Positions 10,183-23,833 of a DNA stretch of 24,000 nucleotides are shown here, one piece after another. Location of the stretch: contig NZ_JQGK01000018.1 in the NCBI RefSeq assembly GCF_000743525.1, forward strand, positions 23,273-47,272. Reading direction: 5' to 3'. Both the position numbers and the translations under genes were made by a program. The notes beneath the pieces are model-generated. The model saw only the letters and a list, made by a program, of their open reading frames with translations. It was not told where the DNA came from and did not search any database. This DNA comes from Sulfurospirillum sp. SCADC. Lineage in GTDB: Bacteria; Campylobacterota; Campylobacteria; Campylobacterales; Sulfurospirillaceae. Every line of letters begins with the position of its first letter. Positions within the stretch are counted from its first letter, which is position 1.

Positions 10183-10228
10183 AATACCTTTAATCATTAC
10201 ATGTAAACGTATAATCATTAGAGGTATT
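10183..10228. promoter_or_regulatory. 46-bp imperfect inverted repeat in the obg upstream region (function unknown)
   Basis: AATACCTTTAATCATTA (10183-10199) pairs with TAATCATTAGAGGTATT (10212-10228) at 15 of 17 positions. It contains two copies of the 9-mer TAATCATTA spaced 21 bp apart and overlaps one iterated-palindrome copy. Confidence 0.6.
10196..10207. repeat. Iterated palindrome copy ATTACATGTAAA (11/12)
   Basis: Intergenic, between the rpmA terminator and the obg start. Confidence 0.9.
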
Positions 10229-10241
10229 TTTGTTTTGAGGG

Positions 10242-10275: not shown

Positions 10276-10536
10276 TTATAAGCTTGCGGGGATAACAGAA
10301 ACTTTGTTTCTAATTTTATCTTTACGTTGGAATTGTACAAAACCATCGATTAATGCGTAGATCGTGTGATCAACACCGATGCCTACGTTATTTCCTACAT
10401 GTACTTTTGTTCCACGTTGACGAATAATAATATTGCCTGCGCGTACAAATTCACCACCAAATTTTTTAACACCCAGTCTACGTCCAGCTGAGTCTCTATT
10501 ATTCTGGGTACTTCCCTGACCTTTCTTGTGAGCCAT
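10276..10536 (-). CDS. rpmA: 50S ribosomal protein L27
   Basis: 86 aa starting [24 protein letters not shown], which is diagnostic of L27. Confidence 0.95.
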
Positions 10537-10566: not shown

Positions 10567-10586
10567 CGGAGTTTTGAAAAACTCCG
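10567..10586. other. Perfect hairpin CGGAGTTTT-GA-AAAACTCCG in the rplU-rpmA spacer
   Basis: 9-bp inverted repeat read directly from the sequence. It lies 31 nt upstream of the rpmA start on the transcript and has no U-tract. Confidence 0.6.
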
Positions 10587-10590
10587 TTAC

Positions 10591-10665
10591 ACGCTTAAAA
10601 AGCAAGCTTTTCAAGCTACGTTAGCCACTACGGCACTAAAGCTAGCCAACTGAAGTTGGCAGAAT
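10591..10665. repeat. Structured intergenic element, copy A (homologous to 23724-23794)
   Basis: Both copies share the blocks ACGCTT, AAGCTT, AAGCTACG, CTAAAGCT and GGCAGAA in the same order. Copy A has two hairpins, at 10593-10616 and 10645-10660. Confidence 0.6.
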
Positions 10666-10677
10666 TCTATAGGTAGG

Positions 10678-10986
10678 TTAAGCTTTAATGCTTACAACTT
10701 TTACTCTAGTGTATTGTCTTCTAAAACCACGTTTGACTTTAGAGTCTTTACGTCTACGTTTTTTGAAAGTAATAACTTTTTTGTCTTTGCCTTCAGTAAC
10801 AACTTCGAGTTCTACTGTAGCACCATTGACGAATGGGGCACCCACTGTAAGTTCGCCGTTGTTCACAGCTAAAACTTCCGTCACTACTATTTTCTCTTTT
10901 GGCTGAGCGTCAAGTCTATCGACATTTAAGTAGTCGCCTTCTTGAACTTTGTACTGCTTCCCGCCATTTTTGATAATTGCATACAT
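10678..10986 (-). CDS. rplU: 50S ribosomal protein L21
   Basis: 102 aa starting [18 protein letters not shown], which is diagnostic of L21. The RBS AAGAAGGA lies 7 nt upstream. Confidence 0.95.
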
Positions 10987-22038: not shown

Positions 22039-22392
22039 TTACTTCACCTTTTCCAGTTTACATGTAGCCATATCGATCACAATACCTTTATCATTTGGGT
22101 TCTTGTCATTTGCAATAAAACTAAGCGTTCCACTCACAAACACAAACGTCTCCAACGAGATTTCACGCCCGTCGCAATAGAGTGTTTTACCCTGTTTAAA
22201 CGCACTGATCATCATGCGATTTGATTCACTGTTCTCACGATTATGGGCTTCATACCACCACGCAATCCCAATGAAAACCACCAGAAAAAGAAAAAGTCCT
22301 ATTTTTGCTTTGTGAGAGAATGTACTCTTTTTAGCATAGAGCACCGAAACAACCAGAAGTACCACCGCTAAAAAAAGTAAAAATTGCATCAC
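22039..22392 (-). CDS. Small hypothetical membrane protein (two predicted TM helices)
   Basis: 117 aa with hydrophobic stretches FLLFLAVVLLVVSVLY and IGLFLFLVVFIGIAWWY. The GTG or ATG start overlaps the murC stop (ATGTGATG), and the stop is 7 nt before the mutS2 start. Confidence 0.6.
   Translation of the reverse strand: MMQFLLFLAVVLLVVSVLYAKKSTFSHKAKIGLFLFLVVFIGIAWWYEAHNRENSESNRMMISAFKQGKTLYCDGREISLETFVFVSGTLSFIANDKNPNDKGIVIDMATCKLEKVK
22057..22068. repeat. Iterated palindrome copy TTTACATGTAGC (10/12)
   Basis: Inside the small membrane-protein ORF, encoded as A-T-C-K. Confidence 0.75.
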
Positions 22393-23699
22393 ATGGCTCC
22401 TCGAAGCTGATAGGTTATGTCCCCTGCGCCAAAACTGATCACCAACCCTTCATCAAAAATATGTTGGTTCGCTTCGCAAGGAAATATCTCTATACTATCA
22501 TTATTTCGGTAAACACGCGGTGGGAAAAGTGGCTTATAGCGTGCGAACTCTTTTTCAAAGTCGATAAAAACCTCTTTTTCCCCTGCACGCCACACAGGTA
22601 AAATCACGAGCTGATCGACCCCTTCAAAGCAGTTGACAAAACTTTGCAAATTATCAACCGTGCGTGAATATTTGTGTGGTTGCCAGATGGCAGTGATCTT
22701 TTTTAGCCCCATCAGAGCAGCATATTGTGTCGCAGACTCCAGTGTTGCTTTGATCTCGGTGGGGTGATGCCCGTAATCATCAATCAGTGCAAAGTTTTCA
22801 TGTTTGCTCAAAAGATCAAAACGTTTTTTGATGCCTTTGTACTGTTTGAGTTTCTCACGCGCCGTTTCCACATCCATCTCATGCAAGCTCGCCAAAATTG
22901 CCAGTGACGCATCCAGCGCCATATGAGCCCCTATTCCCCACACCTCAAAACAACCCAAATCTTTGAGCACAAAGGAGGTAAAAGGCTCACCATCACGCAT
23001 CACGGTTTTAATGTCGCTGATGTCACGACTTGGATAGAGACGATCAGCTTCAAGCTCCGTAAGCGTGCTTAAAAAAGGATCTTCCGCGTTAATGACGCGA
23101 ATCTTCGCACTCTCCAAAAAGTGTCTGTAAGCCCCATAAAATCGGTCATAATCGTAGTTATAATACTCCATATGTTCCGGCTCTGCGTTGGTGACAATCG
23201 CGATGTAGGGATTGGAATTTAAAAAGCTCGCATCACTCTCATCGGCTTCAAAAATGACATTATTGCCCTCTTTGTAGTACATGTTTGAGCCATACTGCTT
23301 GCTCTCCGCACCAATGACCAAAGAGCCCTCGACCATCGAAGCGAGCATCGCACTGGTCGTACTTTTGCCATGCGCTCCACAGACGGAGAAAACACGTCTG
23401 TTTTTTAAGATAAACAAAAGCGCCTCACGACGAGGCATGATCGTCATTCCTTTTTCACGTGCACGTACAAGTTCGATGTTATCGGGTTTAATGACCGCAG
23501 AAAAAACGACCAAATCTTGGTCAGTAATGCACGCAGGATCGTGTGGAATATGCACAGGAATGCCCATCTCTTCGAGCCCTGCGGTAATTTTGCTTGCTTT
23601 CACATCGGAGCCTGTGATTTCGTAGCCCTCTTGTTTTAAATATTTAGCTAAGGCAGAAAGCCCAATGCCACCAATGCCTACAAAATGAACTTTTTTCAA
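22389..23699 (-). CDS. murC: UDP-N-acetylmuramate--L-alanine ligase
   Basis: 436 aa with VHFVGIGGIGLSALA and the Mur ligase P-loop GAHGKSTT. The start is a TTG at 23699, with AAGGA 6 nt upstream. Confidence 0.93.
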   Translation of the reverse strand: MKKVHFVGIGGIGLSALAKYLKQEGYEITGSDVKASKITAGLEEMGIPVHIPHDPACITDQDLVVFSAVIKPDNIELVRAREKGMTIMPRREALLFILKNRRVFSVCGAHGKSTTSAMLASMVEGSLVIGAESKQYGSNMYYKEGNNVIFEADESDASFLNSNPYIAIVTNAEPEHMEYYNYDYDRFYGAYRHFLESAKIRVINAEDPFLSTLTELEADRLYPSRDISDIKTVMRDGEPFTSFVLKDLGCFEVWGIGAHMALDASLAILASLHEMDVETAREKLKQYKGIKKRFDLLSKHENFALIDDYGHHPTEIKATLESATQYAALMGLKKITAIWQPHKYSRTVDNLQSFVNCFEGVDQLVILPVWRAGEKEVFIDFEKEFARYKPLFPPRVYRNNDSIEIFPCEANQHIFDEGLVISFGAGDITYQLRGAM

Positions 23700-23723
23700 C
23701 CAATATCCTTATCTATTTTTTAT

Positions 23724-23794
23724 ACGCTTTCCAAGCTAAGCTTGAAAAGCTACGCTGCGCTGTGCGCTAAAGCTTGCCTTTTGCAAGGCAGAAA
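23724..23794. repeat. Structured intergenic element, copy B (homologous to 10591-10665)
   Basis: Has the same ordered conserved blocks as copy A. Hairpins at 23726-23750 and 23775-23790 occupy the positions of the copy A hairpins but use different stem sequences. Confidence 0.6.
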
Positions 23795-23810
23795 TGGTAC
23801 CGCTTTACTC

Positions 23811-23822
23811 TTTACATGTAAA
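23811..23822. repeat. Iterated palindrome copy TTTACATGTAAA (12/12; 14-bp palindrome CTTTACATGTAAAG)
   Basis: Intergenic, 12 nt after the aminotransferase stop and next to structured element copy B. Confidence 0.95.
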
Positions 23823-23833
23823 GCTACGCTTTT

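Follow-up and report, generated by a model that had tools for sequence, protein, structure and literature searches.

The GTAG-tagged superfamily of repetitive extragenic palindromic (REP) sequences comprises stems of 5-13 bp with loops of 2-20 nt and a GTAG tag left unpaired at one end, and its subfamilies differ by complementary stem changes and contain G.T pairs (PMC3733652). In REPIN-RAYT systems, which couple REP doublets forming hairpins (REPIN) to a REP-associated tyrosine transposase (RAYT), a single-copy, vertically inherited Y1 homologue is found together with hairpin repeats that persist as a population over long times (Nunvar 2010, PMC2817692; Bertels and Rainey 2011, PMC3116915). 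Here we analyze a structured intergenic element, termed T1, that is present in two copies in a 24,000-nt stretch of the Sulfurospirillum sp. SCADC genome (GCF_000743525.1, NZ_JQGK01000018.1:23,273-47,272, forward strand; hereafter the window), copy A lying between rplU and rpmA and copy B upstream of murC. Our results make it probable that both copies are members of a dispersed, non-coding and mosaic repeat family of the Campylobacterales, of the GTAG-tagged REP/BIME (bacterial interspersed mosaic element) kind.

A BLAST search of the host genome (G000; 2.66 Mb, 41.6% G+C) returned 35 matches, and an iterated nhmmer search converged at 92, dozens of them with E-values of 1e-12 to 1e-21. These matches fall into two types that have only one hairpin (hairpin 1) in common. 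T1, to which copies A and B belong, accounts for ~40 matches, 35 of them full length (~75 nt). In T2, with ~50 matches, hairpin 1 is followed by a different middle hairpin and by a terminator-like end, GCACC-TTT-GGTGC-TTTT. The preliminary description of this DNA had reported an element occurring twice, which holds for the window but not for the genome. All but one of the 92 matches map between open reading frames (ORFs) and none lies in a credible ORF, on a gene map drawn with a crude longest-ORF picker, which gives only approximate start-codon distances and may place a few copies in the wrong context. The hairpin-1 pattern ACG-N8-GCAAAGC-N8-CTACGYT has 60 matches in the same genome, against none for the reversed control.

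Read 5' to 3' on the sense strand (the minus strand of the window, which is the mRNA-sense strand for most neighboring genes), T1 begins with TTCT and hairpin 3 (5-7 bp; GCCTC, a loop that is often GNRA-like, GAGGC), continues with the fixed word AAGCTTTAG, hairpin 2 (3 bp, 5-nt loop) and (A/G)CGTAG, and ends with hairpin 1 (11 bp) and CGTGT. The tip of hairpin 1, GC-TTT-GC, is fixed, and the remainder of its stem is free but always complementary. CGTAG, directly 5' of hairpin 1 on the sense strand, is nearly invariant in 102 unique copies from this and other genomes, and in 33 of 35 copies its last G is base-paired to the C of CGTGT. In the alignment of these 35 copies, 96.9% of the cells assigned to pairs are paired on the sense strand, compared with 78.0% in column shuffles (none of 500 reached the observed value), 27-52% when partners are slid out of position and 90.7% in the antisense alignment. 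Changes on both sides were found in 16 of the 23 pairs (146 cells), including 9 of the 11 pairs of hairpin 1, while hairpin 3 is 99% paired and four of its five core pairs covary. The highest corrected mutual information among the 102 unique copies falls on pairs of hairpins 1 and 3 and on one new pair, which joins the pyrimidine of the hairpin-2 loop (AG-Y-G) to the purine of TA-R-CGTAG (57 C-G, 40 T-A, 5 exceptions) and, with its invariant G-C neighbor, forms a 2-bp pseudoknot-like contact.

Compared directly, copies A and B lie where the preliminary description had placed them, and the conserved blocks that it listed are colinear in a MAFFT alignment. Its claim of compensatory differences is accurate for hairpin 1, in which three pairs have changed. 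For the last hairpin, five of six pairs had been said to differ, a count obtained by comparing the copies one base out of register; anchored on their flanks, the two hairpins read GCCAA(C)/(G)TTGGC and GCCTT/AAGGC, and two pairs are swapped from A-T to T-A. Further copies and covariation, on which that description hinged, were both found. No Rfam 15 family reached its gathering score in the window, and at E<=1 the four copy loci yielded a single chance snoRNA match.

The orthologous sites of other Sulfurospirillum species revealed extensive turnover. Among 24 species, the rplU-rpmA spacer measures 117-121 nt and contains the element in five, and is an empty spacer of 10-16 nt in 19; in one of the filled sites (G021) hairpin 1 has a completely different stem. 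Copy A and the accessory hairpin that adjoins it constitute a single insertion of ~118 nt. At the murC site, the element is complete in eight species, which share one locus-specific stem, and partly duplicated in tandem in one; in four, all that is left is hairpin 1 and CGTGT-AAAAA, in some cases together with a remnant of hairpin 3; in two it is almost entirely gone, and 11 are empty, with a junction of 27-30 nt. Further cases emerged from 20-kb comparisons with five congeners. A T1 copy at C21:23804 is present only in G000 and G022, four other genomes having clean empty sites; a 154-nt T2 insertion is unique to G000 and lacks a duplication; a duplicated hairpin 1 borders one T1 insertion; G016 presents compensatory double substitutions in an orthologous stem; and in G022 hairpin 1 has been lost precisely after CGTAGG. 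This insertion polymorphism contradicts the presence of all copies at the same sites in all species. Words that might represent target-site duplications were seen on both sides of the C21:23804 copy (ATTTTA) and, in some species, of the murC copy (AAAGATTTT-like words), and no such duplication was found at C21:25290, at C21:17096 or at the rplU-rpmA site.

Recombination between copies is directly visible; T1 exchanges its left-hand modules with those of T2, and the recurrent joint is the fixed tip of hairpin 1. One site is occupied by T2 in G007 and by T1 in G000, G009 and G023, with a chimeric hairpin whose arms derive from different sources. In S. cavolei NBRC 109482 (NZ_BBQE01000001.1, L107:4509-4885), four tandem 102-bp units, each made up of T1 and a 27-nt spacer, lie just upstream of a gene, and the internal units have chimeric hairpin-1 arms.

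To delimit the family we drew on wider samples. The hairpin-1 pattern occurs in 24 of 24 congeners (2-52 exact matches each, none for the reversed control) and in two of the 16 other families sampled, and a scan of one genome per species located it in Sulfurospirillum, Sulfurimonas, other Sulfurimonadaceae, Hydrogenimonas and many metagenome-assembled genomes of the Campylobacterales, with a few chance matches elsewhere. Full T1 units with the same fixed words are found in those genera, again just upstream of start codons. A covariance model (R1), which also matches copy A and gives scores of 83-100 bits, detected T1 in 38 of 151 genomes from across the order and in 10 of 26 families, and gave no T1 in several families sampled ten times. 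Plasmid and phage collections contained no T1 match. [quoted passage not shown]

Like the GTAG REP and BIME repeats, including the REP, palindromic unit (PU) and BIME elements of E. coli (Di Nocera, De Gregorio and Rocco 2013, PMC3733652), T1 is a short repeated stem-loop that lies between genes and bears GTAG at one foot. The 11-bp stem and 3-nt loop of hairpin 1 fall within the published ranges (PMC3733652), complementary stem changes and G.T pairs are common, copies number in the tens, are unevenly distributed among species and lie between co-directional as well as convergent genes, and T1 combines with further fixed modules to form mosaics and tandem arrays, as in BIMEs. The earlier suggestion of a REP/MITE-like family is borne out by the 92 intergenic copies, their presence or absence at orthologous sites, the mosaics and the GTAG tag beside the main hairpin, although the T1 ends, TTCTGCC... 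and ...CGTGT, are not complementary and thus do not form the terminal inverted repeats of a MITE. T1 differs from GTAG REPs in that the last G of its GTAG takes part in a pair, a hypervariable, AT-rich stem is combined with a fixed loop and fixed flanks, the unit is kept across at least 10 families of an order, and its copies show a sense-orientation bias in operons. It is best filed as a new composite variant of the GTAG REP/BIME repeats, rather than as a REPIN-RAYT system or a gene-specific regulator.

Several observations weigh against this assignment. Classical REPs are single hairpins of 20-40 nt, often in inverted or head-to-head pairs, unlike T1, which spans ~75 nt with three hairpins and a loop-to-flank pair and whose copies are direct. 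The fixed words are kept across families of an order, more than would be expected of decaying selfish DNA, a pattern that also fits a host function. Some orthologous copies retain their locus-specific stems throughout the genus, so that many copies are old and stable and not actively moving. Part of the G.U excess described below could reflect a transcription-linked C-to-T bias on the non-template strand. Lastly, no enzyme could be tied to the repeats: no T1 or T2 match lies within ~1.5 kb of 31 Y1_Tnp loci in 28 Sulfurospirillum genomes, the Y1 gene is flanked by unrelated terminal inverted repeats of its own (GGGTCAGGGCTAAAC...), six T1-rich, nearly complete genomes lack Y1_Tnp, and across the order the two co-occur only weakly, Y1_Tnp being present in 24 of 38 T1-positive and 49 of 113 T1-negative genomes (odds ratio 2.2, p = 0.04, uncorrected for relatedness).

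The strand on which the hairpins are preserved bears on the question of function. The paired positions of the 102 unique copies comprise, on the sense strand, 1668 Watson-Crick, 103 G.U, 25 A.C and 38 other combinations; read on the plus strand, the non-Watson-Crick cells of helices 1 and 3 in 35 copies are 31 A.C, 7 G.T and 8 other. Copy A illustrates this asymmetry, the single A.C of its hairpin 1 on the plus strand being a G.U on the minus strand, and for both window copies the fold of the sense RNA is more stable than that of the antisense RNA by 3-4 kcal/mol. T1 copies tend to point in the direction of transcription: between co-directional genes, 23 of 28 are in sense orientation (p = 0.0009), as are 14 of 17 in five genomes of five other families (p = 0.013), both p-values overstating the significance because the copies are related. 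Relative to the G-rich (leading) strand the count is 24 of 40, without the replication-strand bias expected of IS200/IS605-like elements, and where gene direction and leading strand disagree, in lagging-strand genes, seven of nine copies follow the gene. Because the hairpins are kept on the mRNA-sense strand and orientation tracks transcription, T1 is probably constrained as part of transcripts, and the conserved RNA structure proposed earlier survives in this weaker sense only.

When T1 is read in sense orientation, a co-oriented gene follows 29 of 39 copies, at a median gap of ~26 nt that contains an A-rich tract and a ribosome-binding site, and 22 copies lie inside operon spacers, where they are also near the upstream stop; copies A and B both sit, as previously reported, between co-directional minus-strand genes (rplU and rpmA; murC and the 3' end of an aminotransferase gene). 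Among the genes downstream of T1 are rpmA (L27), murC, dnaK, mdh (malate dehydrogenase), aclB (ATP-citrate lyase), fba (fructose-bisphosphate aldolase), acs (acetyl-CoA synthetase), ribA (GTP cyclohydrolase II) and those for a copper ATPase, a ClC channel, a uracil-DNA glycosylase, CinA, a MiaB-like protein and others. They are functionally unrelated, which rules out a pathway-specific regulator and makes the cis-regulatory leader suggested before, if taken as gene-specific, unlikely. The other suggestion, an embedded small RNA, is unlikely given the lack of any promoter-like or terminator-like site belonging to T1; promoter and terminator scans detected no terminator-like site inside copy A or B on either strand. 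The sequence CGTGT-AAAAAT was considered as an extended -10 box and rejected, since the resulting leader would be too short for a ribosome-binding site and the sequence is missing in copy A and is a target duplicate at one site.

In one alternative account, T1 would be primarily a host-serving RNA, a generic module that acts as a leader or between cistrons, just upstream of the ribosome-binding site; its repeat-like spread would be secondary, and its hairpins would stabilize or insulate the downstream cistron, for instance by blocking 5'-to-3' RNase J or by offering a processing site to RNase III or RNase Y. We consider this account unlikely. In its favor, pairing is maintained on the mRNA-sense strand, orientation in operons is mostly sense, T1 ends shortly before the start codon in Sulfurimonas and other genera as well, many of the downstream genes are highly expressed housekeeping genes, the decaying murC copies retain hairpin 1 and CGTGT-AAAAA, and the fixed words and the pseudoknot-like pair are kept across 10 families. 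Against it stand the close relatives that manage at the same genes without T1, with spacers of 10-30 nt, and the roughly one quarter of copies found in other orientations or contexts. Nor is proximity to the start codon telling, being a trivial outcome of insertion into short spacers in which the ribosome-binding site must be spared; insertion into spacers once only 10-30 nt long explains it most simply.

Structured intergenic repeats that are part of transcripts have precedents. The BOX elements of Streptococcus pneumoniae and the Correia elements (CREE, Correia repeat enclosed elements) of Neisseria span 100-150 nt, are co-transcribed, form stable RNA and can alter mRNA stability or processing. 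T1 is comparable to both as a modular, structured intergenic repeat, with no known sequence relation; inverted repeats at the termini and a TA duplication characterize Correia elements, neither of which is seen in T1, and the architecture of the boxA, boxB and boxC modules differs from that of T1.

A second alternative holds that T1 and T2 are true REPs or REPINs mobilized by a RAYT-like Y1 (HUH) transposase, which would recognize hairpin 1 of the sense strand together with the GTAG on its 5' side; the covarying pair would act as a guide-to-cleavage-site contact of the IS200/IS605 type. The host genome encodes two Y1 homologues, which score 58-60 bits against PF01797 (cut-off 23) and 72.8-74.5 bits against their best NCBIfam match, NF047646 (REP_Tyr_transpos), below its cut-off of 80. 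As in REPIN-RAYT systems (Nunvar 2010, PMC2817692; Bertels and Rainey 2011, PMC3116915), the Y1_Tnp gene (open frame of 258 aa) is single-copy and syntenic, by gyrA, in 26 of 28 Sulfurospirillum genomes, and coexists with a long-lived population of hairpin repeats. The placement of GTAG immediately 5' of the hairpin in the strand where G.T pairs are tolerated, the covariation of the base beside GTAG with one 4-7 nt upstream, the deletion ending exactly after CGTAGG and the absence of target-site duplications at most insertion sites would all suit such an enzyme. However, the gene is never flanked by the repeats and has instead terminal inverted repeats of its own, as does the 'TIRtron' of PMC3733652. 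Repeats abound in the six genomes without Y1_Tnp noted above, and families rich in Y1_Tnp lack T1. The inverted doublets of REPINs were not found either, neighboring copies being direct at C13:28304/28398, at C26:4281/4378 and in the S. cavolei 102-bp array, and orientation tracks transcription, where IS200/IS605-type elements track the lagging-strand template. We regard mobilization by this enzyme as rather improbable. The search of the genome for TnpB and IS605 gave only a sub-threshold match to PF07282, and no TnpB was identified.

Separately, the gene by gyrA (C22:13482-14240; L022:1108-1866, minus strand) encodes a RAYT-like protein of 252 aa with a C-terminal helix-turn-helix-like tail, and is bracketed in a 'TIRtron'-like manner by inverted copies of GGGGTCAGGGCTAAACTTTTAACTTTT, a word present six times in the genome. 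The second homologue is 364 aa long and is accompanied by a truncated duplicate on contig C31.

Two more speculative readings, which together we hold to be improbable, can be put forward. Given its fixed feet (CGTAG and CGTGT), fixed tip (GC-TTT-GC), free stem and the guide-like covarying base beside GTAG, hairpin 1 could be the recognition and strand-exchange site of some enzyme specific for single-stranded DNA; the cassettes it would move, devoid of ORFs, could be the left halves of T1 or T2, inserted, swapped and amplified across Campylobacterales chromosomes. By analogy only, T1 resembles the attC sites of integrons, in which a recombination-prone hairpin with conserved flanking words and a variable but complementary stem folds on one strand, and in which units stand in tandem arrays and are exchanged at the hairpin. 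Unlike attC, T1 has no ORF cassettes, its site consensus is different and it is dispersed chromosome-wide; no integron integrase turned up near T1, although no search was aimed at one. Alternatively, the order-wide, three-hairpin, pseudoknotted unit upstream of highly expressed genes could be a domesticated transposable module that stabilizes mRNA.

It is also conceivable that the stems are kept purely by the dynamics of DNA palindromes, through intrastrand template switching or gene conversion, with neither selection on RNA nor function, and that the strand bias arises as a mutational side effect of transcription. In such events one arm serves as the template for the other, so that pairing is restored in the absence of selection, and traces compatible with them are present in the form of chimeric hairpins with crossovers at the tip and of loops that invert between TTT and AAA among orthologs. 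One case is C18:51072-51146 (L334-L338), where hairpin-1 loop and closing pairs are inverted among orthologs of six species (GGGC-TTT-GCC versus GGGGC-AAA-ACCC), a sign of tip inversion at the DNA level. Template switching, though, restores Watson-Crick pairs on both strands, and predicts neither the 4:1 excess of G.U over A.C on one strand nor the orientation bias in operons; the conserved unpaired words and the loop-to-box pair are likewise left unexplained. We find this account very unlikely. That copies A and B resemble each other by a chance match of two AT-rich structured spacers, an idea favored only by the low complexity of some arms (A and T runs), is already refuted by the nhmmer E-values, the reversed-pattern control and the R1 bit scores given above.

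Returning to a REP/BIME-like family, we propose that T1 spreads as DNA, a likely route being the recognition of a single-stranded hairpin by some enzyme. A RAYT-like Y1 transposase is encoded in the genome but is unlinked to the repeats, and recombination between copies would contribute to the spread. Copies would then survive only at sites and in orientations where they are harmless or mildly useful in a transcript, namely in short intra-operon spacers and in 5' leaders just upstream of the ribosome-binding site. By analogy with E. coli REPs, the stable hairpins may shield the message downstream against 5'-to-3' degradation or the message upstream against 3' degradation, and we infer that such stabilization is the most plausible useful effect. 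The best reading is that T1 is tolerated in transcripts, and it does not appear to be a regulator of rpmA or murC in particular.

For annotation, this suggests that the 141-nt spacer of the L21-L27 operon and the murC leader are repeat insertions and not operon-specific regulators, and that a single model can serve to mask and explain comparable spacers in Sulfurospirillum, Sulfurimonas and related bacteria. The family also constitutes a natural experiment, with dozens of compensated locus-specific stems, filled and empty alleles, recombination at the tip and a bias of strand and orientation, so that constraints on REP-like repeats at the DNA level can be told apart from those at the RNA level. 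Should a mobilizing enzyme or an mRNA-stabilizing effect be found, REP biology would be extended to the Campylobacterota.

The features of the two window copies are collected in Table 1. The hairpin-1 stem of copy B is a locus-specific sequence that is kept in the orthologous copies of other species, and the accessory hairpin beside copy A is similar to the AGAGTTCT...AGAACTCT hairpins that flank many T2 copies.

Table 1. T1 copies in the window, their hairpins and the adjacent genes (window positions).
Feature	Position	Strand	Description
T1 copy A	10589-10664	-	In the 141-nt rplU-rpmA spacer; sense TTCTGCC...CGTGT; nhmmer match C18:33861-33936; matched by model R1
Hairpin 1, copy A	10593-10616	-	11-bp stem, 2-nt loop; sense flanks ACGTAG (5') and CGTGT (3')
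Hairpin 2, copy A	10624-10634	-	GCC, 5-nt loop, GGC
Hairpin 3, copy A	10645-10660	-	GCCAAC-TGAA-GTTGGC, then AGAA; in sense the 5' end, TTCT-GCCAAC...
Accessory hairpin adjoining copy A	10567-10586	-	CGGAGTTTT-GAAA-AACTCCG
rplU	10678-10986	-	Flanks copy A
rpmA	10276-10536	-	Flanks copy A
T1 copy B	23722-23793	-	Between the aminotransferase stop and the murC TTG start, 22 nt from the latter
Hairpin 1, copy B	23726-23750	-	GCTTTCCAAGC-TAA-GCTTGAAAAGC
Hairpin 3, copy B	23776-23789	-	GCCTT-TTGC-AAGGC
murC	22389-23699	-	TTG start; gene after copy B

T2, with ~50 loci in the host genome and none in the window, is exemplified by C21:25290-25348 and C2:20344-20405. Its hairpin 1 is followed by TTAACACTGGG-hairpin-CCC and then by the terminator-like end, and the unit often lies between two further hairpins, one of the form AGAGTTCT-nnnn-AGAACTCT and the other of the form CTTCTTGCAAAA-nnnn-TTTTGCAAGAAG. 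T2 lacks an orientation bias and is overrepresented between convergent genes (12 of 52).

The spacer upstream of the acetyl-CoA synthetase gene (C2:10238-10332; orthologs L349, L355, L357, L358 and L365) holds a different insert in almost every species, among them two unrelated T1 copies, other hairpins and terminator-like palindromes, and thus represents a hot spot of repeat turnover. The S. cavolei genome with the 102-bp units also contains a second array elsewhere, with a period of 114 bp.

A palindromic 10-mer, TTACATGTAA, occurs 1312 times in the 2.66-Mb host genome (813 copies inside ORFs and 499 between them), compared with a handful expected by chance and 0-13 for control palindromes, and TTTACATGTAAA occurs 659 times. 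The palindrome, of which no mention was found in the searchable literature, resembles a highly iterated palindrome such as HIP1 of cyanobacteria, or an uptake-signal-like word. A second REP family formed by GTAG and the abundant palindrome CTTTACATGTAAAG was considered and dropped, as only 2-3 such junctions were found. Copies of TTACATGTAA are often located at or beside repeat insertion sites, and in the window the iterated palindrome is found, for example, at 23810-23823 (CTTTACATGTAAAG) and around 10190-10230.

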